DNA of 46,529 nt from a virus. How positions within the stretch are numbered: position 1 is the first letter of the stretch; each line of letters opens with the position of its first letter. The notes beneath the pieces are model-generated. The model was not told the origin of the DNA and made no database searches. It was given only the letters and a program-made list of their open reading frames with translations. This document shows, piece after piece, positions 9,761 through 40,203 of this stretch. The DNA lies in the IMG/VR virus record IMGVR_UViG_3300045988_058853, positions 1 through 46,529 of that record; one strand, written 5' to 3'. The position numbers and the translations under genes were made by a program.

Positions 9761-9775
9761 TCTGAGATAAGACAA

Positions 9776-9808: not shown

Positions 9809-9898
9809 AAAAATGAAAAATGATAAAAAATCAAATAAACAACAATTACCTAACTAATTAACCTATATTATATATCAATGAATAGAAATTTTCTTTTT

Positions 9899-9929
9899 AA
9901 AAACCTACCTATTTTCACAAACCAGTAGG
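9899..9929 (-). terminator. Weak terminator-like hairpin (first of the tandem pair)
   Basis: Minus strand CCTACtggtttgtgaaaataGGTAGG + TTTTT. The stem is only 5 bp. The loop TTGTGAAAATAG resembles the loop of the 9776..9808 hairpin. Confidence 0.35.
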
Positions 9930-10108
9930 GGATAATCACTTAATATTAACCATGATTGCAATTATTAACAACGCTTTGTTAATGATACGTTTGCTTCTAC
10001 ATAAAGACTTACCAATAAAAAAATGATTAATAATTTATTTATTTGTAATTCTCTGAGTGCAAATGTAGGCATTATTTTTATACCTGCAATAGCTTTAACC
10101 AACGTTAA

Positions 10109-17201: not shown

Positions 17202-19371
17202 ATGTGAGTGAAACGGTTATTTCACGGGTAGTCAAGTCCTCAGTCATGGTTAGAGGCTTCCCGTTTCCGACATCGGTAGTCATTAGCTTGATCGGATCGG
17301 GCGTTGTGTCGTAGGTGAAAGATAAGTCTTGTGTCATACTTCGCCTCAGCCGTTGTACAGTCACCGTTTTATCTCCTTCGTGTTCAATGTTAGCGGCTGG
17401 CATATCGTACATGTAATACTTCACGAGATGCAAGAACGACATATAGCCATTTTGAGGCGTTACGGTGTAGTCGTTACCCGACTTATCCGTCAACGGAACC
17501 GTAACAAACGGCAGTTCCCATTTGCCGGACTTTTGAACCGCACCAAGCAGCGCAAAACCATCTGAGGAAAAGTCACCCGGTGATAGTAGCATATAATCCA
17601 CATCAGAGGAAAAGTTTGCTACTCGAATATCCTCTTTCTTCCCTTCCTGAACATAGTTTGATTTAACGTCAATAGGGAATCCGGCAAAGGTATTAGTCGT
17701 ATCGTCCATCCATGAAAACTCAAAGCGTGACGGCAGGTCTGTTTTATCATACTTAAGCGTGTTAGTCTTAAATGTGAATAGTTGTCCACTCTTTGCATAC
17801 CTCAACTTTGTTAGGTCAATGCCTACCGTCCCTGTTCCGGTATAAGAGCCGCCCGACATGAAGTATGATATATGCTCTATCCTCAGTTTATCACCGTCTA
17901 TAAACCAATAGAGTTTCATTGTATCGCGAAGCATTTTAAAGATGTCGCTCAGTGTCGTTTCTGCTTTCTTTGCGGGTTGATCATACTCACCCTTTAGAAT
18001 GTTACTTTTCGGAGTGATAAAGACCTTGAAAGGAGCGCCAGTCAACGGATTAGACATACCGTATAAGAAGCGTGAATATTCCTCCGTGGCTTCGTGGTGC
18101 AGCGTTGGGTCTACCTGTGTGAGTAGCGTCTTTATTGCGTCACTGATGGCAAAGGAGTGCTTAAGAATGTACTTCTTTCGGGCGCGTTCTTCCAGTGCGC
18201 TATACCCTAAATCATACTCAAACCAAACGGACATATTACCCCATCTTGAACGGCAAATAGGGTACAGTTTGCCAGCTCCTACAGTTGCAGGGAGAAAGTT
18301 ATCTACGAAGTACTTACCATCGTCGTTGACACCGTATTCGGTTGGCGCAACCTGCGTCTTTGTCGAGGTATAGAAATAGTTACCCTGCAAAGGGAAAGCG
18401 TACCGATAATTGCTATTGGTAGGGTATATATCATCAGACGACAACGCACCTGCCTTCTTTCCGTCCAGTTCTGGCAAATCAAGCAATAGACGCTGATATA
18501 GGCTCTGGGACAGGTTCGATTTCATCGTTATGTTAGCTGGTAATGTCGGTTCTTCCGGTATGCGCACGAATGACAACAACCGCTCACCCAAATTAAAGCC
18601 TGTACGTTCGTCCCACGTTAAATTAGACGTTCGGTATAGCTTCGTTCCATTGCTTTGTGCTAAATACATGTATCCATGCGCTACTTGTGCCTCAGATGAA
18701 GTTTTTTCAAGTGCGAGATAGTAGCTTCCATCTTCTTTGCGATACGACCCTTTAGAACCGTAGTAATTCCCGTTAAAAAACTGGTGCGGAGTTTCGTTGA
18801 ATGTTATTTCGTTATAGTCCCCGAAATATTCGAAAAAGTATTTGCTTTTAAGCGTGTCACCGCTCGTCACCACCTCGTATACATCCGTTTCAAAATAAGT
18901 ACCTGCAAGGTAGTTAGATATTGTTCCAGCGCCCGCAATATAGACCTGCACAAGTGGACGCTTATACACACCTATCTGAGTCAAGGCAGGTGCAAGTCTG
19001 ATTAAGTCATACTTATTCTCAATGTTCTTCATTATGCCGGAATAAGCGTCTTTAGGTGATAACTTAACCTTGCAACTCCGATTGTCGTTATCTATCTCAC
19101 AATCTGTCTTGCTGAAATACGCTTCATAGATTACAGTGTATTGCTCCTCCGGCTGTCCTTTGTCCTTTTGTTCGATAGTCATGTAGATCACATCCTCAAT
19201 GCTCTTATTCTTTATTAACAAATAGTCTGCACCGATGAAAGTTAAGCTACCTTCGATTGTCTCTCTGAAAAATTCCTGTTCGTTCTCCTTCCCGAACTTT
19301 CTCTTTAATTCGGTGTAAAGGGGGTGCACCTCTACACCCCCGATTTTAAACCTCAAGTCCTTTACATTCAT
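17188..19371 (-). CDS. Large tail/baseplate protein in the Dit/Tal position
   Basis: 727 aa; 4-nt overlap with the tape measure end. Assignment is positional only. Confidence 0.5.
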   Translation of the reverse strand: MNVKDLRFKIGGVEVHPLYTELKRKFGKENEQEFFRETIEGSLTFIGADYLLIKNKSIEDVIYMTIEQKDKGQPEEQYTVIYEAYFSKTDCEIDNDNRSCKVKLSPKDAYSGIMKNIENKYDLIRLAPALTQIGVYKRPLVQVYIAGAGTISNYLAGTYFETDVYEVVTSGDTLKSKYFFEYFGDYNEITFNETPHQFFNGNYYGSKGSYRKEDGSYYLALEKTSSEAQVAHGYMYLAQSNGTKLYRTSNLTWDERTGFNLGERLLSFVRIPEEPTLPANITMKSNLSQSLYQRLLLDLPELDGKKAGALSSDDIYPTNSNYRYAFPLQGNYFYTSTKTQVAPTEYGVNDDGKYFVDNFLPATVGAGKLYPICRSRWGNMSVWFEYDLGYSALEERARKKYILKHSFAISDAIKTLLTQVDPTLHHEATEEYSRFLYGMSNPLTGAPFKVFITPKSNILKGEYDQPAKKAETTLSDIFKMLRDTMKLYWFIDGDKLRIEHISYFMSGGSYTGTGTVGIDLTKLRYAKSGQLFTFKTNTLKYDKTDLPSRFEFSWMDDTTNTFAGFPIDVKSNYVQEGKKEDIRVANFSSDVDYMLLSPGDFSSDGFALLGAVQKSGKWELPFVTVPLTDKSGNDYTVTPQNGYMSFLHLVKYYMYDMPAANIEHEGDKTVTVQRLRRSMTQDLSFTYDTTPDPIKLMTTDVGNGKPLTMTEDLTTREITVSLTYTPS

Positions 19372-22300
19372 TTCGTCTTTATTATACGTTTAACATTTCC
19401 TTTCACCTCAATGATTGTACCGTCCGCTCCCGTTATAAACTTGTGTCCGGCACTCTCCTTGATTGATTTCAAATCACGTTCTACATTAGACAAATCTACG
19501 TTGCCTCCCTGCATGATATTCGTGACTTCATCAGCACCGGAATAGGCGTTTAGGTATTTCTGTTCAAAAGTACCTTTATTCAGTGAATTAATCAAGTCAG
19601 GCACTAACCGTCTATAACGTTGGGAAGAACGTTTGTTAATTACTGCAAAATATTCACCCTTTTCTACCCGTCTGCGCTTGCCGTCCTTTGTTGTACCTAA
19701 ATCAACATCGTTGCCCGAAGCATGTGAACCTCCGTAGTCAATCATTTCGACCGTACCGTTACCGTATTCCTCTGTTTGGTCTGAGGCTTTAGATAACTGA
19801 GAGGCTTTAATCTTAGCGAATGCAAACGACCCCCACATCAATGCGATTGCCGGAATAGCTGCTAATCCCAAGTCTTTCCACAAATTAGCAGTTGCAGTAA
19901 CCAAAGAACTTGCCTGCATCAGTGTATCTATCCGTTCCTGTGCCTTCTGAGCCTTCTTCTTATCTCTCAGTGCTTTTTCTTGCTGCTTGCGGGCGAAGTC
20001 CAGTTCCTTTTGTGCGGTTGCTACGTTGTTGGCGTATCCGTTTGCCCTCGCTTGTATTTCAGCGTCCAGTACCTTTTGACGTGCTGATACTTCCTTTTCG
20101 GCTGCCTGTACAGCTTTCTCAGCCGCTTCGACCCTTGCCTGTGCTACGCTCTTAAGATTCTCTATTGCGTACTCCGAAGCGTCTGCAATCGACTGCTTAA
20201 ATTCCTCTGAACGCTCTTTGCCGGACTTACCACCTTTATCACCGAACGCGCCGCCAAACATCAGATCAAACAGGTTACCAAATACACCTTGTTCGGAATC
20301 CCAACCGGACGCTTTTTGTTTGATGGCATTATCTATGCCTGCGATAGTGTCCTCAACCGTTTTAATCTCGTATCCCGTAATCTGAGAACCGTATAAGCGT
20401 GTTAGCTCTAATATCTGTTCCCATTTTTGACGCTCAGCATTTAACCGGAAAACTTCCTGCTCTTTTGCTGATCGTTGCACAATGTTAAATTCGGCTTCGC
20501 TTGCTTGTTGTTCTTGCTGCAAGCGGAACACAGACCGGGATATTATACGATTATTCTGATCATTCGTGAAGTCCTCCCGTAGCTTGATAGACGCCAATTG
20601 ATACGCACGCTGCAATATCAAAAGACGTTCGTTCTTTACCGCTTCTGTGTCCGTTGACTGTTTGATACGTAGTTCATCTTGTTTCCGTTCGTTTTCAAGT
20701 AAGTAAGTTTGCAATAACAGTTCTTCCCCAGTTCCTGCACGCACAGCCCTCAGACGTTCGTTCATAAAGTCATGCGCTTTCTGTAAATCTTCCAATTCCC
20801 ATCTTTCACGCAACTTTTCCAAGTCCCTACGCAGTTTTGCCTCTATGTTATAAACGGTATCCGCATATTGTTGCGTAGCTCTTTGCTTTTCCGTTGTGTC
20901 CTTTTGAAGTTTAGAGAGTTCCGCCCTCGCTGCCTCTCTTATCTCCGCTTCTTCTTTCTTTCGTGCGTCTGTAATCAGAGCTACTCTGCTTTCCTCGTAG
21001 GCTTTTAGTAGATCGAACTCCTTTTTCTTGCTGTCCTTAGTAGTATCCTTTCCGGTCACCGAATCAACGCTAACGAGTTTAGTAAGATTCTCCATTGACT
21101 TGGTTAAGATATTCTGCCTCTTAGCAAGTTTCTCCGCTTCATCTCCGTACTCCTTAATATTATCTTTGAGTTTATTAACATTGCTCGCTGTCGCTGCATA
21201 ATATTGACTCGCTGCCTGTGTAGACGTTGCTGTTATGGTAGACGATACCTTTGCGGTGTATTGCTCCGCTTTTGCGAGTTCGCCCTGCGCCTGTACTTGC
21301 TTCGTTAATAGACCGATTCTTTTTTGATCTGCATCTATAAACTCCTTTTGCAACTCTGTTATCTTATCCAGTGCGGCACGTGCTTTTGCATTCTCTGTAA
21401 TAGCCTTAGTTGCTTCTTTATACGCTTTAGACGCTTTCCCTAACTTTATTTCTTCATCGCTTAGGTTTTTAAAGTATTCGGGATACTCCTTTTTCAATGC
21501 CTTAACCGCTTTCGTCCTTTCGTTTGTAGATTTAGCGTTGTTTGTAGCTGTTTTGTACAGTAAGTTGAGTTTTAAAGTCTCTTTCGCTGTCTCTAATCGC
21601 GCGTTTTGCATAGCATCAGCCATATGTTTAAGGCTACCCGTTAAGCTCTCTACCCGCTTCTTTCCTGTGAATAAGCTGCCTATCCAGTTGGTTATATCCT
21701 TACCCCACAGAGAAAAAGCAGTAAGCACTAACACCATGACAGTGTTAAACGAAAACATTGACTTGATAAGTTTCCCCGTAATACTTACTTGCGCCTCACC
21801 TGCTTTTGCTGCTGCTTCATTTGCTGCCCTCAGTTTTTGTATCTCGTCTATAACCATTGGAATGTTATTCGAGATAGCGAGGAAGAAGGTGTTTGCGCTG
21901 ATCGCCAGTGATGGCAACTCACGTGCAACCTGTGACACAGAAAAACCTAAACCATCAAATGCCTGTTTGTAGTTACCTACGCTTAACGTGTGTTTCCCAG
22001 TGCTCTTTTGATACTTATCCATCGCTGCGTATATCTCAGCTGTTTGTTTAACAAGTCGCTTGCCTGCTTCTGTATTCTCCAAATACGACTGAGAAAGATT
22101 GTTCATCTTAATCTTGTTTAGCTCGTATTGTGCGGACAGGGCATTGTAGCTACCAGCCATTGAATTATTTAACTTAGCTTGCAGTTTATTAAGCCGTGTT
22201 TGATCTGTCTGCTGCTGCTTCAATACGGCTATCTCCTTAGCGGTATCTGTCATAGCCAACTTTAAATCAACTTCGGCACGTGCCAGTGAACGAACCTGTT

Positions 22301-22511
22301 TTTCGTAGGCATCTATCTTTTTGCGTCCTTCCTCAGTCGCACCGCCTCCCTCACTGAGTGGCTTTTGAAGACCTTTCGCACCTTCCTCGATACGCTTTAA
22401 CATTGTTTCATACAGCTTTTGCAGTTGCTCCAACTGCTTAACCGCCTCCGATATGCTGTTATCCGGCTGTATCAGATCGCTATATTTTATTCCTTTAACA
22501 TCGTTTGCCAT
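19368..22511 (-). CDS. Tail tape measure protein
   Basis: 1047 aa, highly helical, rich in A/K/E/Q, with internal hydrophobic segments (FFLAISNNIPMV, VMVLVLTAFSLWG, LAAIPAIALMWGSFAFA). Canonical position. Confidence 0.85.
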   Translation of the reverse strand: MANDVKGIKYSDLIQPDNSISEAVKQLEQLQKLYETMLKRIEEGAKGLQKPLSEGGGATEEGRKKIDAYEKQVRSLARAEVDLKLAMTDTAKEIAVLKQQQTDQTRLNKLQAKLNNSMAGSYNALSAQYELNKIKMNNLSQSYLENTEAGKRLVKQTAEIYAAMDKYQKSTGKHTLSVGNYKQAFDGLGFSVSQVARELPSLAISANTFFLAISNNIPMVIDEIQKLRAANEAAAKAGEAQVSITGKLIKSMFSFNTVMVLVLTAFSLWGKDITNWIGSLFTGKKRVESLTGSLKHMADAMQNARLETAKETLKLNLLYKTATNNAKSTNERTKAVKALKKEYPEYFKNLSDEEIKLGKASKAYKEATKAITENAKARAALDKITELQKEFIDADQKRIGLLTKQVQAQGELAKAEQYTAKVSSTITATSTQAASQYYAATASNVNKLKDNIKEYGDEAEKLAKRQNILTKSMENLTKLVSVDSVTGKDTTKDSKKKEFDLLKAYEESRVALITDARKKEEAEIREAARAELSKLQKDTTEKQRATQQYADTVYNIEAKLRRDLEKLRERWELEDLQKAHDFMNERLRAVRAGTGEELLLQTYLLENERKQDELRIKQSTDTEAVKNERLLILQRAYQLASIKLREDFTNDQNNRIISRSVFRLQQEQQASEAEFNIVQRSAKEQEVFRLNAERQKWEQILELTRLYGSQITGYEIKTVEDTIAGIDNAIKQKASGWDSEQGVFGNLFDLMFGGAFGDKGGKSGKERSEEFKQSIADASEYAIENLKSVAQARVEAAEKAVQAAEKEVSARQKVLDAEIQARANGYANNVATAQKELDFARKQQEKALRDKKKAQKAQERIDTLMQASSLVTATANLWKDLGLAAIPAIALMWGSFAFAKIKASQLSKASDQTEEYGNGTVEMIDYGGSHASGNDVDLGTTKDGKRRRVEKGEYFAVINKRSSQRYRRLVPDLINSLNKGTFEQKYLNAYSGADEVTNIMQGGNVDLSNVERDLKSIKESAGHKFITGADGTIIEVKGNVKRIIKTK

Positions 22512-22516
22512 ATAAT

Positions 22517-23257
22517 TTACTTTTTAGCTTTTTTACTTTGTCTTTTAATCATCTCGAATGCTGAGTAGAAATCAAATACTGTCATGTCCTTTGCGTTTAT
22601 GTGCATTTCCTTCGTGATAAGTAAACACATCTCCGTAAACTCCTTATCTGACTGTATCTCTACCGATTTCTCACCTTGAAAGCATCGAGGCGGATAGTAT
22701 ACTGTCAGTTGATCGGTCAATGACTGAATTTCATCGCCTCTATCCGTCCCGTTTGCTGTTTGATCTAACATTGCGGTTAGTAGCTGCAATTTCAGATCGT
22801 AGTACTCCTTAATCTGAGGGCTGTCACCCATTGAAGGGAAGTACATCGACATCTCACCCTCTATTTTTTTTTTGACCGCCTCGTTTGCCTCTGACAGCTC
22901 CGAAACGGTTACATCTGATAGAATGGTGTGTATTTCCTTCAATTGCTCGTCCGTTATGTGTACCGGATACTCTTTCCCGTCCAATGACTTAACGAACGCA
23001 CCGAATGCAATCATGCCCGGGTGAATGCCGTTCGTTGCCATGTTGAACGACTGTCTGAGGTTTAATAGTTCGGTGTACGTGTGATCTGGGTTAGTCTTGC
23101 AGTACAGAGTAGCCCGTTTCAGATGGGTATCCAATTCCTCAATAGTAGAGCCTACACCGGAATCAACCAACATCAAACGGTTGAACTTTTGATACCTTGC
23201 AATAGGTAGTGAGTCGATGCCCTCGTACAACTCGACTTCATGCCGCCCTACTTTCAT
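22517..23257 (-). CDS. Hypothetical protein in the tail-assembly-chaperone position
   Basis: 246 aa immediately upstream of the tape measure. Contains an A10 tract (plus T-run 22864..22873). SD-like GAAAGGAGGCGAAGA precedes the ATG. Confidence 0.45.
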   Translation of the reverse strand: MKVGRHEVELYEGIDSLPIARYQKFNRLMLVDSGVGSTIEELDTHLKRATLYCKTNPDHTYTELLNLRQSFNMATNGIHPGMIAFGAFVKSLDGKEYPVHITDEQLKEIHTILSDVTVSELSEANEAVKKKIEGEMSMYFPSMGDSPQIKEYYDLKLQLLTAMLDQTANGTDRGDEIQSLTDQLTVYYPPRCFQGEKSVEIQSDKEFTEMCLLITKEMHINAKDMTVFDFYSAFEMIKRQSKKAKK

Positions 23258-23517
23258 TCTTCGCCTCCTTTCTCGTATAGCATTGAGAACGTTTCAGAAT
23301 CGACCGCAAACGTTACTTTCTCACCCATGACAATGTAATCACCTGCATACACCTTCATCGTGCAATCGCTGATTCGGATAGTTGCTATTCCATCTGTGCC
23401 CGACAATAACTCAACGTCCGGAATCAAAACGGCAAGTTCGTACATATCACCGTTAAACTGTACAGCCTCAACAATATAAAACGGAAACAACACACTTACA
23501 TACTTTCTAATTTCCAT
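23254..23517 (-). CDS. Hypothetical protein (87 aa), tail-module associated
   Basis: ATGA overlap with the downstream gene. Confidence 0.5.
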   Translation of the reverse strand: MEIRKYVSVLFPFYIVEAVQFNGDMYELAVLIPDVELLSGTDGIATIRISDCTMKVYAGDYIVMGEKVTFAVDSETFSMLYEKGGEE

Positions 23518-23522
23518 AACTA

Positions 23523-23825
23523 TTAGATTAAGATTCTACAAACAGGTGCAGCAAATAACGGTGTGGCGAGAAACAACGGATCACCGAATAAAATAGCGAA
23601 TACCATCGACATAACGAACGAAGCCCAAAATGACAGACAAAAGTTGCATCCCGCTAACTGGTACATGAAGCTACGATTATATGCAGGGAATATCTTTTTC
23701 ACCCACATATCACCGAACACCTGCAATCTTTCGATTACTCCCCACTTTCTCAATAAACCAACAACAAATGCTGCCATAAACGCCACCAAAAGCGCACAAT
23801 TCAATAGTAAATTTACTTTTTCCAT
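23523..23825 (-). CDS. Small integral membrane protein with a CxxC motif (DUF1360-like?)
   Basis: The track ORF starts at a TTG; the first ATG (23825) gives MEKVNLLLNCALLVAFMAAFVVGLL...LAGCNFCLSFWASFVMSMVFAILF. 3 predicted TM segments. Confidence 0.55.
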   Translation of the reverse strand: MEKVNLLLNCALLVAFMAAFVVGLLRKWGVIERLQVFGDMWVKKIFPAYNRSFMYQLAGCNFCLSFWASFVMSMVFAILFGDPLFLATPLFAAPVCRILI

Positions 23826-23880
23826 ATTATAACATATTAGTTTTGTACAAATGTATGAATAAATAGCGAAAAACAAAACA
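23826..23880 (-). promoter_or_regulatory. Promoter candidate (-7 box TACATTTG = plus 23848..23855)
   Basis: Minus strand gTTTTGtttttcgctatttattcaTACATTTGtacaaaactaatatgttataatATG. Confidence 0.4.
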
Positions 23881-23950
23881 GATTGATAATTAAAAGGTTA
23901 GTTTGAATCTCTCCGAGGCGGGATAAAAAGAGAATGTATAAAAACAAGAA

Positions 23951-23970
23951 AAGGAGGCGTTAACCTCCTA
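23951..23970 (-). terminator. Rho-independent terminator after 23989..24348
   Basis: Stem aggagg/cctcct with a 6-nt loop. The minus strand continues TTTTCTTGTTTTT. Confidence 0.6.
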
Positions 23971-23988
23971 TTCCTTACTTGTTCATAA

Positions 23989-24348
23989 TTAGCTATTTTC
24001 TGTATAGTTCCTATACAAAGCAATCAATGCTGGGTGACATAAACACCCCTTGCCCGGCACAAATTCCATCCAATCGTGGATAGACACCCTTTCACACTGA
24101 ACGTGAGAACGGTTGCCATTAACATTAATGTTTTGCATTTCCGTCCTGATGAAACCACAACTTTCCATATACTCTAAAAAACGTGATGTTTCCTCACCTA
24201 ATAGGTCGTACACATCAACAAAGTCACAAGACATCAACATAGACACCATTTCCTTACCTTCTGCGGGACTTTCTTTCTTGACACGCATAATTGTGTCATT
24301 AATCCGAGAACGTATCTCTGAGAGCATTAAAATAACTTCTTCTTTCAT
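23989..24348 (-). CDS. Hypothetical protein
   Basis: 119 aa, ATG start, followed by a terminator. Confidence 0.55.
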   Translation of the reverse strand: MKEEVILMLSEIRSRINDTIMRVKKESPAEGKEMVSMLMSCDFVDVYDLLGEETSRFLEYMESCGFIRTEMQNINVNGNRSHVQCERVSIHDWMEFVPGKGCLCHPALIALYRNYTENS

Positions 24349-24443
24349 AAGTCAACACTTTTGAATTAAAACTTTAATTTTTAAACTTTCTCTTTAATAG
24401 TTACTAAAAGTAAGTACTATACTTACCAAAAGTAACCATTGAT

Positions 24444-24680
24444 TTAAGTTAATTCTACGTATATCACATCTTCTCTTTCCTCCCCTCTTTCCTCTAATAA
24501 ACACATCACTCTATTACATTTAAACGGAGCATTTGATTTAAGGAAAAAACATTCTCCGCACGAACATTCATTTGACGGGACACACTTCAATAGCTGACAC
24601 TCACCGTCTGTATCTATCAACTCCATTGTTTCACCGACCTCTAAATCTAATGGCAGGCATGATAAATCTAATCTTTTCAT
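24444..24680 (-). CDS. Small Cys4 mini-domain protein (paralog c)
   Basis: LLKCVPSNECSCGECFFLKSNAPFKCNRVMCLL shares C-x-[EK]-C-x-F-x(6-8)-C-x(4)-C with the two upstream genes. Confidence 0.6.
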   Translation of the reverse strand: MKRLDLSCLPLDLEVGETMELIDTDGECQLLKCVPSNECSCGECFFLKSNAPFKCNRVMCLLEERGEEREDVIYVELT

Positions 24681-24895
24681 AACTTTACTTGTTTATAGGT
24701 TTGACACTTTCCCGTAGCCATATCGACACATCGCATAAGCGGGCATATCTTTTTAAACTCCTTTTGCCGGAATAGGCATTCCCTGCATGATATTACATTG
24801 TTACCTTCCATTGCTTGCACTCTGATTGTTTCCCCTGTCACCGGATGATCTATTGTGAAGGTGTCATACAGTTCTACGCTTTTAAATTTTCCCAT
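24677..24895 (-). CDS. Small Cys4 mini-domain protein (paralog b)
   Basis: IRVQAMEGNNVISCRECLFRQKEFKKICPLMRCVD. Confidence 0.6.
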   Translation of the reverse strand: MGKFKSVELYDTFTIDHPVTGETIRVQAMEGNNVISCRECLFRQKEFKKICPLMRCVDMATGKCQTYKQVKL

Positions 24896-25721
24896 CTGAT
24901 ACCATCCTAAATGTTAGTTGTGTTTCATCGTCTATTGTTATGCAACGTACTCCCCAACACAAAAAGCCTAATTCACCACCATAAAAACAGCACTTCTCAC
25001 ATGCTTCCCTATCTTTCGATACCAGTGCTTTCACTTTTCGATCTATCCCCTTATTTGGTACTTCCGCTAAAAATATTTCTCCTTTTTCCGGAACAAACGT
25101 ACCTTTGTCTGATATAGATAATCTACGCATTTTCTTAGATTTAGCCACATACTTTTTAACTAAATCTTTCTGCGCTTCAAGTTCTTTGTTTGTCTTTTCA
25201 TAGTTTAGCTTTAGTTTGTCATTCTCCCGTCTGCACATCTCGTTTTCCTCCGCCAACAATTTTCCGTTTGCTCTCTCAGACTTCAATTCATCTACAATAC
25301 CTCTCACAGAGCTACATTCAACTTCTTTCAGCATTGAGAAAATTTCATCAACTATAAACTTATGATGTCTTTCCGCATTATCTCTTTCTTTTTCAGCTTC
25401 CAATCTCCTTGCCGCTTCTTTCCTCCATTTGTTAAGCAAATAATTGCTTTTCTGTTGTTCCTTCTTATATCTATCACATACATACGAATAGTCCTCTTTC
25501 AGCTTTTCAAGTTCCTGGGAGACTTTCACCTGCTTTCTTTCAGTTCCGGTTATATCGCATACCAGTTTGTGAAAATCGTCACTCTCTGTCAGATACTCCA
25601 AAAGAGCTACTTTCGTTTGGTCTGTCAAACCTGTCTTTGTAGGCGTGGATGATTTACCTACGAATACATCATCTGAATACGTTGTTTCATACATCCATGT
25701 GCTACTTACTTTCTTTTCCAT
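24882..25721 (-). CDS. Coiled-coil protein with a C-terminal Cys4 mini-domain (paralog a)
   Basis: Central heptad-like EKLKEDY...RRLEAEKERDNAERHHK...NDKLKLNYEKTNKELEAQKDLVKK. C-term KVKALVSKDREACEKCCFYGGELGFLCWGVRCIT. Confidence 0.6.
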   Translation of the reverse strand: MEKKVSSTWMYETTYSDDVFVGKSSTPTKTGLTDQTKVALLEYLTESDDFHKLVCDITGTERKQVKVSQELEKLKEDYSYVCDRYKKEQQKSNYLLNKWRKEAARRLEAEKERDNAERHHKFIVDEIFSMLKEVECSSVRGIVDELKSERANGKLLAEENEMCRRENDKLKLNYEKTNKELEAQKDLVKKYVAKSKKMRRLSISDKGTFVPEKGEIFLAEVPNKGIDRKVKALVSKDREACEKCCFYGGELGFLCWGVRCITIDDETQLTFRMVSDGKI

Positions 25722-25725
25722 GTTA

Positions 25726-26481
25726 TTACAATTTTACGTTATTAATTAATTTTAAAAAGTGATCTCTACCTTTTGCAGTTACCAGTGTTTGAGTCCCTGC
25801 CTTTTCACCTTTCGCCCATTCTTTCAACTCCAAATAGTTTCCAACATACTGGGCTATTGGCTTCAACTTTCCTTTCTGATCTCGGTATATGTACTTCTTA
25901 TCAATCAGGAGAAAGATAAGTGCTTTTTCAGACACGCCTAACAGCTTTGCTGTATCTCTGAAATTGGTTAGTCCGTTCCGGTCTACTATTTCATCAAAGT
26001 ATTCGGCTTTGGGCTTCATATCTTTATTCTCTATCTGCAACCGTTCGTTTTCCTCTACCTGTACGAGTAGTTCCTTTAAAGCCTCTTTGTACGTTTGAGG
26101 CAATTTAGGTTGATTGTCCATTAGAGCGTTTTCCAATTTTTCAATATAAGAAATAACTGCTTTACGGACAAACTTACTTTCACGTACTAAAACCTGCTTT
26201 GCTTGTGATAGAGTCAACTCAAACATTGGGTATTCTTGACCGTTCTGAGGGTGTTTATATAGGGTAGGCAGAATTTTCTGCATACCTATTTCCTCGTCAA
26301 ATTCATCTCTAATAACATCTAATAAAGTTTTATGTTTCAATTTAGTTCTGTCACCTTCCTGCTCTCTAAACAAATTGATTTGTTTCAATAACTCCAAAGA
26401 TGTTATTTTCTCCTGCGTACGTTCGCCAACTTTGATTAATTCATTCATTTGTTTTCTTGTTTTTATTATTGCGGGTGACAT
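25726..26481 (-). CDS. KilAC-domain antirepressor (paralog 3 of 5) with a divergent N-domain
   Basis: C-term KPKAEYFDEIVDRNGLTNFRDTAKLLGVSEKALIFLLIDKKYIYRD...LELKEWAKGEKAGTQTLVT is close to the paralog 2 C-term. The track start (26517) is a TTG. ATG at 26481. An alternative ATG at 26448 gives MNELIKVGE, matching the leader of paralogs 1, 2 and 4. Confidence 0.75.
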   Translation of the reverse strand: MSPAIIKTRKQMNELIKVGERTQEKITSLELLKQINLFREQEGDRTKLKHKTLLDVIRDEFDEEIGMQKILPTLYKHPQNGQEYPMFELTLSQAKQVLVRESKFVRKAVISYIEKLENALMDNQPKLPQTYKEALKELLVQVEENERLQIENKDMKPKAEYFDEIVDRNGLTNFRDTAKLLGVSEKALIFLLIDKKYIYRDQKGKLKPIAQYVGNYLELKEWAKGEKAGTQTLVTAKGRDHFLKLINNVKL

Positions 26482-26506
26482 TTCTGCCACCCTGTTAACT
26501 ACTTGA

Positions 26507-26737
26507 TTACTTACCAAAATCTATTACTATGTTAATACAATGTTTGTTGCAGTCAATTGTGAATGGTACATTGTGAACGTTACAAGCATGAAGAATAGCA
26601 TTCGTTAAAACTGTGTTCTCTTTTCCGTAACCGCATGATACTCCTTCATCCGAACATTGTGCACACCCATCACCACCAAGCAATTTATACATTGCATAAA
26701 CACTCTCACAAAATTGTTTTTTAGTCATTGTTGCCAT
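26507..26737 (-). CDS. Small Cys-rich protein (76 aa)
   Basis: First gene after cassette C; GGDGCAQCSDEGVSCGYG...HACNVH...IDCNKHC. Confidence 0.55.
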   Translation of the reverse strand: MATMTKKQFCESVYAMYKLLGGDGCAQCSDEGVSCGYGKENTVLTNAILHACNVHNVPFTIDCNKHCINIVIDFGK

Positions 26738-26846
26738 AATTGTTGTTTTTTAATTGTTACTACTTTGTTTCCTTTTGACATTGCAAATATAAGCATAACT
26801 TTTAAAATGCAAAGCAAAACTTTAATCTTTAACACTTATTTAACAC
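26738..26846 (-). promoter_or_regulatory. Promoter/leader cassette copy C (-7 box TATATTTG = plus 26784..26791)
   Basis: tttttaattgttactactttgtttccttttgacattgcaaatataa (1 mismatch to copy D over 46 nt) and ttaatctttaacacttatttaacacaaaa (29 nt identical to D). Confidence 0.65.
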
Positions 26847-26880
26847 AAAAGGGGATATATACATATATGTATACTCCCCT
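26847..26880 (-). terminator. Rho-independent terminator after the head/neck genes
   Basis: Long bulged stem ggggatatata / tatgtata(c)tcccc. The minus strand continues TTTTG. Confidence 0.6.
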
Positions 26881-26887
26881 TGTCGTA

Positions 26888-27457
26888 TTATGGATAACAC
26901 GCCTCCGGTGCAATCATATCACACACAAAACGTAGGCAGGCATAAGGATAGACGTAGAATTGATTGTCGGTTTTCTCAATACTAAAGCCGTCATACACAT
27001 TCTTTGCGTCATTAAATATCCGCTTAACGTTCAAACCTCCGTATGACAATTCAAGTTCATGCGTTAACGCTCGCAATATGCGTTGTTTGACGAACTCAAC
27101 ATTGTACCCCTCTGCACCGGGAATTGTACGGGTGTCGAACCAGAATATAATACTCACCTCACCCTTCAGATCACCGAAACCAAAGTCCCCATTCCCCTCG
27201 TAGTCCTGCGAGTCATGAATATAGAAAAAGCAGGTGTTGCCGTACTTATCATTTGGCTCTAACCTCAAATAGTCTTTATCCTTGTAATAAACGGACGGAG
27301 TGATGAACTTTCCTTTCTCCGTTCGCTCCACTAACTTATATGCGCTTCCAAACGCATAATTTAGCCATTGTAGCGACTTTACAAGGCTAAACTGTACATT
27401 TCCTATCACTTCATCGAAAAGTACCGCATTCGGCTTTAAAATAGCTCTATCTTTCAT
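26888..27457 (-). CDS. Hypothetical structural (neck/head-tail joining position) protein
   Basis: 189 aa; positional only. Confidence 0.45.
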   Translation of the reverse strand: MKDRAILKPNAVLFDEVIGNVQFSLVKSLQWLNYAFGSAYKLVERTEKGKFITPSVYYKDKDYLRLEPNDKYGNTCFFYIHDSQDYEGNGDFGFGDLKGEVSIIFWFDTRTIPGAEGYNVEFVKQRILRALTHELELSYGGLNVKRIFNDAKNVYDGFSIEKTDNQFYVYPYACLRFVCDMIAPEACYP

Positions 27458-27899
27458 TTAGTATCTCCTTAACTTTTTTTGCTGCTTCATCTTTCACATA
27501 ATCGTTAATAAATTCGGCAAGCGATTCATTAGTTAAACCAAATATCTCGGCACCGTATTTCTTGATTAACCAGTCCGTTTTTTCGTCTGAGGCTTTAATA
27601 TAGAATCTGTCCTCAGCCGTTTCAACGTAAAAAGAGTCGTAAAACTCCCCTGTGTCCTTTAGAGTTACCCGGTCATACGGTTGCCGCTTCTCTATCTTAA
27701 CCTTTATAGTGAAAGGGCTGTACGGTCTATATTCGTCTATCCGGACCCCCAGCCTGTTTACCCCTTTGGCGAATAGCTGATCTTGTGCGTTCATGTCGAT
27801 AAGAATGTTATCGTTATCCCGCACAATTTCCTTTGCTATTCGTCCTGAGTCTAAAGCTTCTTTCACTTTCTTAACTCTATCTAATAAGTTTGTTATCAT
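27447..27899 (-). CDS. Putative head-tail joining protein (HK97 gp10-like pattern)
   Basis: 150 aa; ...DRVTLKDTGEFYDSFYVE... resembles head-tail adaptor/morphogenesis families; memory-based. Confidence 0.4.
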   Translation of the reverse strand: MITNLLDRVKKVKEALDSGRIAKEIVRDNDNILIDMNAQDQLFAKGVNRLGVRIDEYRPYSPFTIKVKIEKRQPYDRVTLKDTGEFYDSFYVETAEDRFYIKASDEKTDWLIKKYGAEIFGLTNESLAEFINDYVKDEAAKKVKEILNER

Positions 27900-29200
27900 G
27901 TCGATTTAAATCTGATACCACCGTTCCGACAAGTCAAGCATATTCTATCCATACCTTTAGTATCTACGCTTAACGCTTTCATTGCTTGGTTCAACTGATG
28001 TCCTATACCCTGCGCACGACCTTGTGATACACCGTCAACCTCGTATAAGATTGATTCTCTATCAATGTTCAATTGATTGGCATTCTGCCGGACGTTCGGA
28101 TTTAAGGCAAGTTCGCGAAGGATATAAGCAGCCATCTGCAAAGAAATAGCATTCGCAAAGACAAGTTTTTCGCTTATGATGAAGTCGGTTATATCACAAG
28201 CAACCGTAAACTGCACATTCATTCCGTAGCATGTTGCAGGTGTATAAACGCTTGATTGAATATTAAACAGATTCTCACCCTGTTTTGAGTCATTCCTGAA
28301 CGGTGATATTTGAATGTACTTTGTTAGCTCTCTCCACGCCTGCACACTTCCAACGTTGCAAGTTCCACACGGCTCTGCGCTAAAGTCTTTTGCCATGTTT
28401 ATTGCAAATACATCGTACGGCAATGATTCTTGATCGTAACACAGATACCATGTACCGCCCGGTGACGTTGCCTCAGAAATATAAGGTAAAAATGCGTCCG
28501 GTACATCAAACCATTGATAAGACCCATTACTCGTATAATTCAAGTCAAACGTGTGTGTGGGCTGAGGCTGTGAGCTGTGAAAAAGATACATCTTAACTTT
28601 CACTGGCTTAGTAAACTGCAAACCGATTCTTTCAATCTTCGTAGTAACACCCATCGCCCGAACTGGCAATATTTCATATCCTACCATGCTCTTTGTAGGG
28701 TCAATTTGGTTAGTGTAGTAGCCCGAACCGTCAAACAGTGGCCTACGCTCTAACAGCGTCTTTGTTTCCCCGGCTATCGTCTTTTCCGTGATAAATTTAG
28801 TGATAGTAGCCGTTATTGCTTTTTCGTTTAGCTCTCTGAGGTAATCGGACAAAGGGTTATATCTCTCCCAGTTTCGACCTCCCTCTGAGGGCTGCTCTCC
28901 GGTTGTTCCGTTTGTGGCTATCCACACCGAAGGTTTTGACAATAGAGGATCACTGTTAAACCTCACCTTGTCACCGACCGCATAAGTCTCTGTATCGCTG
29001 TATTCCGGATACTTCTTATAGTAGTCTAACGGCATTATAGATGATATGTTTTCAAGCGTCACAAGTGGGTGAACGTCTTGATAAGAAATACCGCTTTCAG
29101 ACGTTGTTAGTTCGGTGTCTATCTGATTGTCTAAATCGTACGACTGCCTCCAACCTACTACGTTTTTTAAGCTATCTTTTATGTCTTTTATTCTATACAT
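27896..29200 (-). CDS. Hypothetical virion-module protein (434 aa)
   Basis: Follows the major capsid gene and its terminator; function not recognisable. Confidence 0.5.
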   Translation of the reverse strand: MYRIKDIKDSLKNVVGWRQSYDLDNQIDTELTTSESGISYQDVHPLVTLENISSIMPLDYYKKYPEYSDTETYAVGDKVRFNSDPLLSKPSVWIATNGTTGEQPSEGGRNWERYNPLSDYLRELNEKAITATITKFITEKTIAGETKTLLERRPLFDGSGYYTNQIDPTKSMVGYEILPVRAMGVTTKIERIGLQFTKPVKVKMYLFHSSQPQPTHTFDLNYTSNGSYQWFDVPDAFLPYISEATSPGGTWYLCYDQESLPYDVFAINMAKDFSAEPCGTCNVGSVQAWRELTKYIQISPFRNDSKQGENLFNIQSSVYTPATCYGMNVQFTVACDITDFIISEKLVFANAISLQMAAYILRELALNPNVRQNANQLNIDRESILYEVDGVSQGRAQGIGHQLNQAMKALSVDTKGMDRICLTCRNGGIRFKST

Positions 29201-29277: not shown

Positions 29278-30594
29278 CTATCCCCCAACTGTTTTCGTTG
29301 GAACTGGTTCGCTATCTGCGTTTTTAACCTCTACATTAAGATTTGATGCTTGAGAGTTAACCTTTACATCAACTACACCACCAGTAGATGAAACTGCCAC
29401 ACCCTTAACCTTATCTAAATCTACCTTTAAAGCCGATTCTCCAACTGCACTGCCTCCAATTTTAGCAAGGTTAACAGATATTTCACCTGTAGCAGCCCCG
29501 CCACCGATTTGATCGGCATTAGTGATATAAACGGGTGTACCTCCGAACTGAGAACCGTCCTTCTTAATTTCAACCTTCATAATCGGGTTGGAAACAGTTT
29601 CCGGCGCAGAGTTGTAAGCTACAACGAAAGCAATATCAACGGAGAAACCGTAGTGCTCTTTGATGTTACATTTCATGTCAGCAGTTGCTGCGCCTGCTAT
29701 AGCGGACTGATCACCTACCGACTCGTAGTAATGTGTACCAACTTGGAAACCTGCAAACGGGAAGTTGATAACGTCCCATTCGTGACCTGCTTTAGAGGTT
29801 GCTCGTCTGAGGGCCTCACGGTCAACACGTGTCAACATACCAACATTACCACTTTCAATTGCGTAGAATTGAGCGAAGTTTTCACTTTCCAAAACCATGT
29901 TATTTGTAAAGTGGAAAATCTTATTTGCATATTCCAGTTGCTTGTTAACATCGTTGTAGATTCCGTGTTGTTCCAACTTCCGAACAATAGCGTCTACACC
30001 TGTATCACCTACGATATGAAGTTGACCGGAATAGTCCATAGAACGGAACATCGGGTGCAAATCTCCGAGGATGTCGTTGCGCTGCATGTAGTTAACCTGT
30101 ACGTCATTCGCTGTCTGCGTGTAGTAAAGCAAATTACCGAATTTCTGCGTTTTAGCCGCTTCCAATGCTGCGATAGCGTCCTTGTCGACTTGGTCTAAGA
30201 ATTTACGAGAAAACTTAAGCATTTTCTTTTCAAAATCTTTCTGATAGTCGATTTCGTTGTTGTTAAACATAGTCGGAACCATCGTAAAACCGAAAGCGTA
30301 TGTTTTCCATACAACAGCCATCAGTTTAGAGGTGTTCTCAGCGTCCGCAATGACGCATGTACGTTCGTTTGCAACGGTGACAGTCCCGTCATAATCAATC
30401 ACCGGAATCTTGATGTCTGTCCCCATAGACGAGAAAGCACGTCTTTTAGTTTCATCCGTCAACATCGAATCCGGAGCATTCGTCTGAGAAAGGAAAAAGT
30501 CAAGCGCACCCCATTCGGTGAGGCGGCTCATGTTTTTGTCAACTTGCGGATTTCTCAACCGCATTTCTTGAGTGCGTGTCGCAATTAAGCTCAT
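29278..30594 (-). CDS. Major capsid protein (putative) with a Gly/Val-rich repetitive C-terminal extension
   Basis: 438 aa, directly after the scaffold-like gene and followed by a strong hairpin. C-term GGGAATGEISVNLAKIGGSAVGESALKVDLDKVKGVAVSSTGGVVDVKVNSQ. Confidence 0.6.
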   Translation of the reverse strand: MSLIATRTQEMRLRNPQVDKNMSRLTEWGALDFFLSQTNAPDSMLTDETKRRAFSSMGTDIKIPVIDYDGTVTVANERTCVIADAENTSKLMAVVWKTYAFGFTMVPTMFNNNEIDYQKDFEKKMLKFSRKFLDQVDKDAIAALEAAKTQKFGNLLYYTQTANDVQVNYMQRNDILGDLHPMFRSMDYSGQLHIVGDTGVDAIVRKLEQHGIYNDVNKQLEYANKIFHFTNNMVLESENFAQFYAIESGNVGMLTRVDREALRRATSKAGHEWDVINFPFAGFQVGTHYYESVGDQSAIAGAATADMKCNIKEHYGFSVDIAFVVAYNSAPETVSNPIMKVEIKKDGSQFGGTPVYITNADQIGGGAATGEISVNLAKIGGSAVGESALKVDLDKVKGVAVSSTGGVVDVKVNSQASNLNVEVKNADSEPVPTKTVGG

Positions 30595-33802: not shown

Positions 33803-34444
33803 TTAACCACCTACTCCACTCGGTGCGGGGACTAACTGGGTCAGAGGGTTAAAGTCCGGTTTAAAAATCTCCAAGTTATCCGACCAATTAGGCTTGAAAC
33901 TCCACGAAATTACATTCGTGTCCGGTGCTTCCAAACCTCCGATAGTGCGATCACCTACAAACAGCGATTCAACGGGAATTGGCTTATAGTTTTCACCGTC
34001 TTTAATAGCTGCTATCTGACCGTTGCCGTTAATCAAATACACTCCCAGTCCTCCGGTAACTTCGCACATAAATTGCTTCAAAACCTTGATAACTGCCTGT
34101 GGAGTTTTCAAGAACTTACCAGTACACGGACTACTATTAGACCCCAAAATTTCAACTACGCCACCGGGTGTTGCGTTCCCGCCTCCATACGTCAAAGCCT
34201 CTCCCGCTTCAACAGTAGGTTCAGCAATGTACGGTGAAACTACCATTTTAGTAGCGTCTTTTGCAGCGAGTAAAGCAGTCCAAGTACCCAAAGTTTTTGC
34301 GGTTGCAATAGTTATTGAGTTCTCAGCCGCTTTACCCATCAATCTCTGAAATACTACTTTCTGAATCTGACCGAAGTTCTCCGGACATGTTACAACCGGG
34401 ATATCCGGTAAAGCCGTTCCTAACGGACAATCACAATACAACAT
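33803..34444 (-). CDS. Beta-rich virion-type protein (possible tail tube / major tail protein) in an unusual position between TerL and portal
   Basis: 213 aa with its own TACATTTG box upstream. No other tail-tube candidate lies between the neck genes and the tape measure. Confidence 0.3.
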   Translation of the reverse strand: MLYCDCPLGTALPDIPVVTCPENFGQIQKVVFQRLMGKAAENSITIATAKTLGTWTALLAAKDATKMVVSPYIAEPTVEAGEALTYGGGNATPGGVVEILGSNSSPCTGKFLKTPQAVIKVLKQFMCEVTGGLGVYLINGNGQIAAIKDGENYKPIPVESLFVGDRTIGGLEAPDTNVISWSFKPNWSDNLEIFKPDFNPLTQLVPAPSGVGG

Positions 34445-38214: not shown

Positions 38215-38934
38215 TTATTTGTTTAAAGTTAATGTTTTGCGTATAAAATCTAATCCCTTTTGAAACACCACTGTCTTTATATTAATGCAGTTAGTTCCAT
38301 CACTTTTTGTATATTGAGTTTCAACGGTTCTAAAATACCCCAAATCTATATACTTTTGATAAGGCATGTTTTTACGATCAAGAACACGTTTATCTCTTAA
38401 TACTTCAAATATTTTATTCCGACCTATCCCCATATTCAACACAGTTGCAACCGTTCGCATATCAATAGTGTCCTCGCTACCTGTAACAGCATTATAAAAC
38501 TCAACCTTTGGAGTCTGCTCTAACAGCAATTTATTTTTCTCCTCTATTTCCTCCGCTTGTTTTGCTTCTAACATTAAAGCCTCGCTAAATGTAGACGGAA
38601 TAACGAAGTTGCCGAAACGCTTCTCCTTTTCGAGTTCTTCCCAACGATTAATGATTTTAGCCCGTAGATTTGCATCATATCCGCTTGCAAGAAGTAGGCT
38701 ATCTTTTTTAGTTAGAAGATAATAAGGGTCTTTTCTTTCTGCGTTATTCCCTAACTTGGTGATTTTGAACATCAATTCAAAATTGAATTTATGTTTTTCT
38801 TCCAGTTGTTCAAGGATATTGCGAATATCTCTCATAACATTTGAATGTTGTTTACCTGTGAGCTCTGCTATCTGCAAAGAACTCATAGTTTCTTTTGCGT
38901 TTATAGTTTCGCCAACTTTAATCAAATTATTCAT
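38215..38934 (-). CDS. Rha-like / KilAC-type antirepressor (paralog 4 of 5)
   Basis: MNNLIKVGETINAKETMSSLQIAELTGKQHSNVMRDIR...RAKIINRWEELE. C-term TPKVEFYNAVTGSEDTIDMRTVATVL. Confidence 0.7.
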   Translation of the reverse strand: MNNLIKVGETINAKETMSSLQIAELTGKQHSNVMRDIRNILEQLEEKHKFNFELMFKITKLGNNAERKDPYYLLTKKDSLLLASGYDANLRAKIINRWEELEKEKRFGNFVIPSTFSEALMLEAKQAEEIEEKNKLLLEQTPKVEFYNAVTGSEDTIDMRTVATVLNMGIGRNKIFEVLRDKRVLDRKNMPYQKYIDLGYFRTVETQYTKSDGTNCINIKTVVFQKGLDFIRKTLTLNK

Positions 38935-39884: not shown

Positions 39885-40061
39885 TTACTTTACTTCTAAA
39901 TCTCTAAGGATATTTGTTGCACGCTCGTTCCCATTCTCAGCCGCTTTAACTAAAGCCTCGTAATGTGATAGCTTGTTTCCGCCAAAAACGTGTGCAGAAC
40001 GCAAAAGCATTAATAACTTTGAATGACTGATCTTTTCTCCTTTATAAATGTAAGTTGTCAT
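39885..40061 (-). CDS. Small ORF (58 aa; below the track cutoff), first gene after cassette D
   Basis: Own translation: MTTYIYKGEKISHSKLLMLLRSAHVFGGNKLSHYEALVKAAENGNERATNILRDLEVK. Confidence 0.45.
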   Translation of the reverse strand: MTTYIYKGEKISHSKLLMLLRSAHVFGGNKLSHYEALVKAAENGNERATNILRDLEVK

Positions 40062-40170
40062 ATTGGTTAATTTTTAATTGTTACTACTTTGTTTCCTTTT
40101 GACACTGCAAATATAAAGCAAAACTTTAATATTCTAATTATAAATTTAATCTTTAACACTTATTTAACAC
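40062..40170 (-). promoter_or_regulatory. Promoter/leader cassette copy D (-7 box TATATTTG = plus 40108..40115)
   Basis: Near-identical to copy C in the leader (46 nt, 1 mismatch) and the distal segment (29 nt identical). Confidence 0.65.
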
Positions 40171-40203
40171 AAAAAGGGATACCCTGCTTTAGAGTATCCC
40201 CCC
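40171..40203 (-). terminator. Rho-independent terminator after ssb
   Basis: Stem gggatac (40176-40182) / gtatccc (40194-40200). The minus strand continues TTTTTGTG. Confidence 0.7.

Follow-up and report, generated by a model that had tools for sequence, protein, structure and literature searches.

We analysed a block of genes that interrupts the late structural region of the phage genome in IMG/VR record IMGVR_UViG_3300045988_058853. The stretch analysed, hereafter the window, is the whole record, a complete 46,529-nt siphophage genome with nearly all of its genes on the minus strand. By sequence it is a member of the B124-14/B40-8 group, phages of Bacteroides fragilis, and Bacteroides phage BK649P1 is 96.7% identical to it over the queried region only. 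Seven open reading frames (ORFs) in 23523-26737, all on the minus strand, encode a 76-aa protein, a KilAC/ANT protein, proteins of 279, 72, 78 and 119 aa, and a membrane protein. A first-pass annotation, made from the letters of the sequence alone, had described them as seven non-structural-looking genes of an island between the head/neck and tail modules. That description holds for six; the seventh gene product, which has three transmembrane segments (3-TM) and a CxxC motif, is part of the backbone of the tail operon and is encoded 3' of the island terminator and of the promoter at which that operon would restart.

Every feature of the island described here is on the minus strand. It opens with an intrinsic terminator that closes the head/neck operon (26847-26880), a hairpin at 26851-26879 followed by TTTT, which sits right after the stop codon of a gene for a 189-aa protein and is predicted to fold with a dG of -22.9 kcal/mol (z = -6.4; 0 of 200 shuffles were as stable). 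It is followed by copy C of a promoter/leader cassette (26738-26846; nhmmer E 4e-32), with an upstream GTTAAATAAGTGTTAAAGATTAAAG element, a TTTG at -33, the -7 box TATATTTG (26784-26791) and an A-rich leader (26738-26783) running up to an ATG. The six island genes follow: a Cys-rich 76-aa protein (26507-26737), which is the swappable promoter-proximal gene; an Ant-like regulator whose C-terminus is a KilAC domain and whose N-terminus is weakly Rha-like (25726-26448; PF03374, E 8.7e-22; phrog_63, E 7e-39); a 279-aa coiled-coil protein fused to a four-cysteine (Cys4) unit (24882-25721); Cys4 mini-proteins of 72 aa (subfamily F3, 24677-24895) and 78 aa (subfamily F5, 24444-24680); and, beyond a spacer, a 119-aa orphan protein (F1, 23989-24348). 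The island terminator (23942-23969) consists of the hairpin AGGAGGT-TAAC-GCCTCCT at 23952-23969 and a T-run (z = -3.8), and was the sole terminator-like site called by our scan in 22500-27500. Beyond it lies the tail-operon restart promoter (23826-23941), with the -7 box TACATTTG at 23848-23855 and a TTTG ~19 nt upstream, and then the gene of the 100-aa membrane protein, F2 (23523-23825), the first of the tail operon. The first-pass annotation had proposed both terminators and the second promoter box, and all three were recovered, the upstream hairpin by its folding, and the downstream hairpin (given as 23951-23970) and box by the terminator scan and by a TAnnTTTG search that placed minus-strand boxes at 26784-26791 and 23848-23855. 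A scan for sigma-70 promoters stayed at background, with 12 sites against 13.4 expected. Judged from sequence and folding only, the island would thus have its own promoter and terminator.

The GC content of the island, 36.3%, is like that of the non-structural regions of the genome (35.4-36.9%) as opposed to the structural blocks (41.5-42.6%), which supports an insertion of non-structural character; the membrane-protein gene has 39.9% GC and the 87-aa gene after it 41.7%. Among relatives, 12 sequenced isolates and 11 IMG/VR contigs were mapped over the region. In all 23 islands a variable block of 3.2-6.0 kb occupies the same junction with a stereotyped gene order: the cassette (23/23), one to four small and highly variable genes, the Ant-like gene (in this mapping in the window's clade only), the coiled-coil protein, a tandem Cys4 array, the 119-aa protein (23/23), sometimes a protein of 106-126 aa, the terminator, the promoter, and the 100-aa membrane protein (23/23).

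To cover more relatives, a profile of the 189-aa protein, which is the tail terminator, was used to retrieve 79 IMG/VR loci, and these were sorted into three tiers by identity to the window protein. Clade 1 is window-like (92-98%, 11 loci) and carries the island; clade 2 is B124-14-like (about 70%, 27 loci) and has it in every locus with downstream sequence; clade 3, the group of Parabacteroides phage PDS1 (35-38%, 41 loci), has no island. In total the block is present in 36/36 informative loci of clades 1 and 2 and in 12/12 isolates. The first-pass annotation had suggested looking in relatives for presence or absence at the junction, and the absences are precise: the gene order in the 41 clade 3 loci is tail terminator, membrane protein (85-91 aa), a 257-aa protein and tape measure, and the gap between the terminator and F2 genes is -8 to +11 nt in 33/33 loci in which both ORFs were called. 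A cassette was found within 8 kb of the junction in 0/41 clade 3 loci vs. 26/27 clade 2 loci. The clade 3 order marks the membrane protein as backbone, and the comparison of clades places an insertion, or with lower probability the loss of the block from one clade, at precisely this junction. The start of F2, which is present in all three clades, is most likely the ATG at 23825 (100 aa, as in relatives), not the TTG at 23876. Its similarity to DUF1360 (PF07098) is centred on CxxC-x3-W and scores 14.4 and 15.9 bits against a Pfam cut-off of 21. A feature annotated DUF1360 in PDS1, under a match spanning the whole neck-to-tape-measure stretch, is presumably the F2 homologue, the sole candidate there. 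On these grounds we consider it probable that ~23942-26880 is a self-contained, separately transcribed accessory operon that was inserted between the genes for the tail terminator and the DUF1360-like membrane protein in a B124-14-like ancestor.

The anatomy of the locus suggests how such an operon would be read. The late transcript of the head/neck operon would stop at the hairpin 26851-26879. Host RNA polymerase would start at the promoter of cassette C, which has the Bacteroides consensus (-7 box 26784-26791), and would read through the A-rich leader into six genes, with transcription ending at the hairpin 23952-23969. The second conserved promoter (-7 box 23848-23855) would then restart the tail operon, a restart that the insertion itself would have made necessary. 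The distal junction, comprising the terminator, the spacer, a TAC[A/T]TTTG box and the leader, averages 79% identity between clades 1 and 2, compared with ~64-70% in the neighbouring coding DNA, and the terminator stem is kept between these clades through compensatory changes; the higher conservation of the junction is consistent with a working terminator and, behind it, a promoter that restarts the tail operon.

Timing can be approached through Bf12P1, a phage 89% identical to Barc2635, for which single-cell RNA-seq resolved one early (genes 16-20), three middle and two late clusters, with genes 44 (tail terminator) and 45 (tail protein) the latest genes of late cluster 2 (PMC13139388). The Bf12P1 and B124-14 numberings can be tied together at thymidylate synthase (gene 13/ORF008), the terminator protein (gene 44/ORF035) and RNase E (gene 54/ORF044). 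Taken with this mapping, the existence of two separate late clusters would imply that the tail genes and gene 44 are separated by genes of non-late expression, at the place of the island. The same mapping equates the early genes with the unit that cassette B heads. Separating the lysis/tail block from this cassette is a 404-nt stretch with no ORF (9705-10108, minus strand), non-coding but with a TACATTTG box of its own at 10060-10067. Candidate roles for it are a non-coding RNA, a site for replication or packaging, or the second of the early promoters that the Bf12P1 study reported. Scans for Rfam families and for tRNAs had no match anywhere in the window.

A different reading would make the block a morphogenesis module, with the coiled-coil, Cys4 and 119-aa proteins as late-made assembly factors of the tail or neck or as minor virion proteins. 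Siphophages usually encode their tube and chaperone proteins at this site, and all B124-14-like genomes keep both the position and the core gene set. The B124-14 study put these ORFs in a 24-ORF 'structure and packaging' cluster, and its virion mass spectrometry was shallow, recovering only ORF38, 39 and 42 and missing the portal (PMC3338817); the UZM3 paper (PMC10222676) contains no virion proteome. Sequence searches against the Protein Data Bank (PDB) speak for the structural nature of the flanks. The 189-aa protein (26888-27457, minus strand; phrog_8145), encoded by the last gene of the head/neck late operon and kept in all three clades, matches chain 9wwa_h, 'terminator protein' (E 1e-35). 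Upstream of it, a 434-aa protein (27896-29200) matches the 'adaptor protein' 9wwa_I (E 2e-135), a 438-aa protein (29278-30594) the capsid chain 9ww9_F (E 8e-132), and a 213-aa protein (33803-34444, minus strand) the 'tube protein' 9wwa_N (E 1e-70). The earlier claims that the block interrupts late structural genes, with the head/neck operon ending at 26888, and that the slot for the major tail protein is empty here are borne out by these matches, the tube gene lying at 33803-34444.

The four flanking structural proteins have counterparts in 9ww9 or 9wwa, but none of the island proteins matched a PDB chain, solved virion chains included. The sister clade makes the same neck, tube and capsid without such genes: 9wwa_h, reconstructed from the HMMER alignment (186 residues), is 100% identical to the protein of several island-less clade 3 loci, so a complete neck, tube and capsid are built without island genes. 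The terminators and the non-structural-type cassette promoter insulate the block, its GC is like that of non-structural regions, plaque-forming isolates carry frameshifted or truncated copies of its genes, copy number is highly variable, and Bf12P1 has two separate late clusters (PMC13139388). Taken together, we regard a morphogenesis module as unlikely. The best-supported statement about the island products is that they are not virion proteins and not essential for assembly, and that the slot also accepts a DNA methylase.

The structural flanks hold some further observations. PDB entries 9ww9, 9wwa and 9wwb are virion structures of a PDS1-like phage and permit re-annotation throughout the B124-14 group, whose structural genes have poor names in GenBank. 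The 213-aa tube protein is called 'major head protein' (MP2) in relatives, and its gene lies between those of the large terminase and the portal, far from the other tail genes. Since the PDS1-like clade also has no tube gene between the terminator and tape measure genes, the displacement of the tube gene appears older than the island. On the other flank, F2 is followed on the minus strand by the 87-aa gene (23254-23517), a 246-aa gene in the chaperone position (22517-23257) and the tape measure gene (19368-22511), as assigned by phrog_8914 and relatives' annotations; no solved virion chain was matched by the 246-aa protein. The 87-aa gene is a second variable point inside the tail operon, with deeply divergent alleles among otherwise close relatives (100%, ~80% and ~36% identity) and no counterpart in the PDS1-like clade.

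The core of the island is made of proteins that resemble little outside their own family. In the 279-aa protein, residues 1-199 align with free-standing coiled-coil proteins and residues 198-279 align end to end with free-standing Cys4 proteins of 77-98 aa. The Cys4 motif is C-x2-C-x-F, 6-10 residues, C-x4-C, preceded by two or three beta strands, and in the alignment the four cysteines are invariant and one phenylalanine is kept in 90% or more of the sequences. The number of Cys4 ORFs per island ranges from one to seven; some of these ORFs contain two units, and others are truncated, as in BF695P3 and BF698P1. A search of 5.8 billion proteins returned 114 Cys4 clusters, mostly on contigs of ~47 kb or less, with six on 57-137-kb contigs, and a profile search of 1.84 billion representatives returned 47 clusters, mostly of small unannotated proteins. 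P0265, a Cys-rich repeat protein of 590 aa, is not of this kind and is probably a spurious match. A remote member with several domains (P0260) is encoded on another phage-like contig, in a group of small genes that adjoins replication genes. The AlphaFold2 model of the 78-aa protein (pLDDT 79) had no PDB neighbour in Foldseek. Its viral matches at E<=0.001 (ranks 1-3) were BFVD entries with 41-49% identity and lengths of 100, 156 and 90 aa, the lengths of Cys4 ORFs in vB_BfrS_23, VA7 and B124-14, and the next was a 114-aa Herelleviridae protein at E 0.038. As far as sequence and fold searches can define it, this tandem family is confined to phages and matches nothing in Pfam or the PDB.

The 119-aa protein is found in nearly all clade 1 and clade 2 loci. 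Its homologues form 114 clusters, most of which come from contigs of up to ~47 kb (two are on contigs of 89 and 137 kb, and one has the NCBI label Ruminococcus intestinalis). It has no Pfam domain, and its AlphaFold2 model (pLDDT 86) had no PDB match in Foldseek, where almost all viral matches were to its own family. Isolate BK649P1 has a frameshift in the gene, and vB_BfrS_23 an N-terminal truncation; such decayed 119-aa and Cys4 copies in isolates, together with the variable number of Cys4 ORFs, argue that the island is dispensable and plastic. The 126-aa or 106-aa proteins that follow in some relatives were considered as paralogues of the 119-aa protein and rejected (hhalign probability 12-15%, over a short motif). 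Across all island proteins, Pfam, PHROGs and PADLOC scans gave only the KilAC match and orphan PHROGs, and the PDB sequence matches obtained with joined island proteins were artefacts of the GGGGS linkers.

Small Cys4 proteins between two late operons raise the question of a timing switch. P2 Ogr and P4 Delta are 72-aa Cys4 activators, and by analogy the Cys4 proteins of the island might be zinc-finger activators that turn on late promoters in mid-infection, with the Ant-like and coiled-coil proteins as co-regulators. Their size (69-100 aa), their four invariant cysteines and their placement suit such a role, as do the strong conservation of the adjoining late restart promoter and the presence of F3 in 21/23 islands, more conserved across clades than the flanking genes. 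Membership of the Ogr/Delta family found no sequence support: a Pfam scan of 24 Cys4 members at E up to 1 returned neither Ogr_Delta nor any DNA-binding family, a profile search against PDB sequences gave only weak RING-finger matches (best E 0.072), and the predicted fold has no PDB neighbour. The sister clade, with similar late genes, has no Cys4 genes at the junction or within ~8 kb on either side, and one to seven paralogue ORFs with decayed copies would be unusual for an essential regulator. We give a timing switch little credence.

How genes enter and leave the island is suggested by the cassette. The first-pass annotation had noticed a cassette copy at the island start, and it is indeed one of a repeat family. 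A repeat search (family D1) found copies at 6693-6820, 9637-9764, 26730-26857 and 40054-40181, and nhmmer added weaker ones at 43188 and 5279; as delimited, the five copies besides C span 43188-43302, 40061-40178, 9640-9774, 6694-6827 and 5279-5354, all on the minus strand and each at the head of a non-structural unit. The cassette is ~125 nt long, with the conserved order GTTAAATAAGTGTTAAAGATTAAAG, -33 TTTG, TATATTTG, CA(A/G)TGTCAAAAGGAAACAAAGTAGTAACAATTAAAAA, ATG. The window, B124-14 and BF695P3 each have six copies at syntenic positions (copy C at ~26734 in the window), again all heading non-structural units. Just upstream of the promoter block in copies A, B, C and D, the four that were folded, there is a hairpin with a U-run (dG -16 to -23 kcal/mol), and these hairpins are not homologous to one another. 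By sequence reading, copy E has a short inverted repeat and a T-run inside the cassette, and the nearest hairpin to copy F is ~130 nt upstream. An exact-pattern scan of IMG/VR for the leader gave eight hits, all in this phage family, with a pattern too strict for a census.

Several lines of evidence connect the cassette with exchange of the genes behind it. In each comparison of the window with a relative, DNA homology picks up again at 26731-26774, the 3' end of the cassette. Compared with one IMG/VR locus (L024), the sole difference in the island is 26464-26742, i.e., the 76-aa gene. Compared with BK649P1, the closest relative, the 76-aa gene and the N-terminal half of Ant differ, with breakpoints at 26091 and 26731. 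Gene families also change slots: the 76-aa family is in slot C in the window, slot A in BF695P3 and slot D in B124-14, while the MTTYIYKG family is in slot D in the window and BF695P3 and in slot C, the island, in the B124-14 clade. In 6/23 islands one or two small genes are enclosed by a second cassette copy. Within a genome, copies C and D share 80-81% identity, vs. 71-74% with their positional counterparts in the other clade, and this greater likeness within the genome suggests that the two evolve in concert; the description of C as almost identical to D was too strong, their identity being 81-84% in the window. A leader variant, AGTAG vs. ATTAC, is common to most slots within a genome, with the exception of B124-14 copy A. 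Within the island, the spacer at 24349-24443 contains a weak hairpin and a degenerate remnant of the upstream half of the cassette (24364-24403; repeat-search family D4, 70% identity to the reference copy). This decayed copy, without a -7 box and 5' of the 119-aa gene, suggests a former cassette junction inside the island.

The cassette is thus a likely recombination substrate, and the earlier proposal of recombination at the cassette stands for the promoter-proximal genes, given the slot changes, the breakpoints at the cassette 3' end and the bracketing copies. It would serve as portable homology, and recombination between copies would move, insert or replace promoter-proximal small genes such as the 76-aa gene, while deeper in the block a core would persist: the coiled-coil protein, a Cys4 array that expands, contracts, fuses and decays, and the 119-aa orphan. 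The proposal of an insulated, moron-type module acquired by recombination at the cassette accordingly keeps its main thrust (own terminator, promoter and leader, and exchange at the cassette) and loses its suggestion that this phage acquired the module recently, since the coiled-coil protein, Cys4 array and 119-aa protein are found throughout the B124-14-like lineage. That the whole block is a recent private moron, picked up in one step at cassette C as its own promoter and terminator, its lower GC and the differences from BK649P1 might suggest, is extremely improbable, because 12 isolates and 36 loci of two clades share junction and core although the flanking terminator protein is only ~70% identical between the clades, only the promoter-proximal 0.3-0.7 kb is specific to this phage, and the conserved distal junction shows no sign of independent insertions.

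The 76-aa protein has no Pfam or PHROG match; its homologues are 49-67% identical and are never in the island of phages B124-14, Barc2635, vB_BfrS_23, BF695P3, BF698P1 and BF698P3. In Barc2635 and vB_BfrS_23 the homologue is ~13-16 kb downstream of the island, matching slot D by position only, and in BF698P1 and BF698P3 it matches slot A, likewise by position only. The annotation of the next gene as KilAC was well founded: residues 163-259 score 78 bits against a Pfam cut-off of 25.3, and the start codon is most likely at 26448 (MNELIKVG), as in relatives. Ant-like genes with mosaic N-termini are found in islands of clade 1 and of a few clade 2 phages only. The island of BF486P1 (L007 3015-3683) has no Ant; between the cassette and the coiled-coil gene it encodes a predicted 222-aa N6_N4 DNA methylase (PF01555, 56.8 bits), the only functionally clear, counter-defence-type cargo seen in the slot.

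The window encodes four Ant-like paralogues, all on the minus strand (1322-2071, 8159-8848, 38215-38934 and 25726-26448), with pairwise identities of 24-45%; three open with M-N-x-[LI]-I-K-V-G-E and the fourth (1322-2071) with MESNLSKVGE. Closest to the island Ant is the early-region paralogue at 8159-8848 (42.5% identity). The island protein resembles the KilAC/ANT family (PF03374; phrog_63) in a C-terminal domain above threshold and in the mosaic N-termini typical of Ant, Bro and Rha. It differs in context: the family name implies relief of a prophage repressor, whereas this genome has four paralogues and no recognisable repressor or integrase. None is listed in relatives' annotations, and the UZM3 authors also note their absence (PMC10222676).

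We then asked which known systems the cassette and island resemble. The closest analogue, though not one of which they are members, appears to be the PeSL (promoter-early stem-loop) cassette, a mobile regulatory cassette of T4-type phages with their hyperplastic regions (Arbiol et al., 2010, PMC2839356; Comeau et al., 2014, PMC4122927). In both, a terminator stem-loop (here in the folded copies A-D) is followed by an early-type promoter, several copies per genome lie between conserved gene blocks and flank small ORFs of unknown function, and indels or replacements between close relatives are bounded by the motif, with some genes bracketed by two copies. The sequences are unrelated, with the Bacteroides TAnnTTTG box and -33 TTTG here and sigma-70 early promoters in T4-type phages; the conserved part here is the promoter and a ~45-nt leader, and the hairpins differ between copies. 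Moreover, the cassette resides in a siphophage genome of 46 kb, where there are only six copies and these keep to fixed syntenic slots, one of them inside the late structural region.

Lambdoid morons are autonomous promoter-gene-terminator units between late genes (Juhala et al., 2000; Hendrix et al., 2000). The island is similar in lying between two genes that are adjacent in related phages (33 of the 41 PDS1-like loci, those with both ORFs called), and in its own predicted promoter and terminator and deviant base composition; independent expression, which the Bf12P1 clusters suggest, would be a further likeness. Unlike a moron, it consists of six genes with a conserved core, not a single gene, and is fixed in a whole lineage; expression from a prophage is inapplicable in a phage without recognisable lysogeny genes, and a second promoter would have been needed to restart the operon. 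The hyper-variability hotspots defined with iLund4u (Egorov, Hauryliuk & Atkinson, 2024, as cited in PMC13139388) share, in the account given there, a fixed locus between conserved genes with cargo that differs among close relatives and includes counter-defence genes, e.g., a DNA methylase. By that account, the island differs in having a named, repeated regulatory cassette as recombination substrate and in that part of the locus is a conserved, lineage-specific multigene family.

As products of an accessory operon, the island proteins would not be virion parts. They would work within the infected cell, before replication or while it proceeds, and serve regulation, host takeover or counter-defence; a putative anti-host function is plausible. 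Several points weigh against this interpretation or parts of it. No island protein has a recognisable function except through the KilAC domain, and zinc binding by the Cys4 proteins is presumed from their four invariant cysteines. The core genes are kept in dozens of genomes, which argues for a useful, possibly important function and not for disposable cargo. Middle, not late, timing is inferred by analogy, from cluster counts and gene numbering in a related phage. Since cassettes of this type head the early unit and, by inference, middle units too, they do not fix timing by themselves. The solved structures are those of capsid, neck and tube. Finally, the comparison is among clades 1 to 3 themselves, and a deletion in the PDS1-like clade instead of an insertion in the B124-14-like ancestor is the less likely alternative.

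We noted two features at the ends of the genome. A 55-nt exact terminal repeat (regions 1-67 and 46475-46529 of the window) probably reflects the assembly of a circular or circularly permuted genome with overlapping ends, and a 21-nt motif, CAACTTGCATTTTGCAT(A/T)TTT, occurs in two adjacent copies at 25-45 and 47-67.

We found neither the island nor cassette shuffling described in the papers on B40-8, B124-14, vB_BfrS_23 and UZM3, and the main text of the Bf12P1 paper (PMC13139388) resolves temporal modules without discussing the block. For the phage group, our results entail corrections of annotation: tail terminator for the 189-aa protein, tube for the 213-aa protein, and non-structural for B124-14 ORFs 26-34. 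B124-14-like phages are among the few cultured lytic B. fragilis phages, serve as faecal-pollution markers and have been considered for therapy. If the island is a non-virion, host-directed module, it would be an obvious place for narrow, strain-level determinants of host range and a site tolerant of engineered cargo. The Cys4 mini-proteins and the 119-aa protein, which match no known family or solved fold, are candidates for new phage-host interaction proteins. More tentatively, the terminator-promoter-leader cassette may be a PeSL-like mobile element native to Bacteroides siphophages that captures small genes and redistributes them among six expression slots, and the island a fast-evolving, host-directed arsenal of new-fold zinc mini-proteins, Ant-like regulators and sometimes a DNA methylase that helps set which Bacteroides strains can be infected. 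Apart from that reading, the repeated cassette indicates that gene shuffling guided by regulatory motifs, known in T4-type myophages, also operates in an unrelated siphophage lineage with a different promoter grammar.

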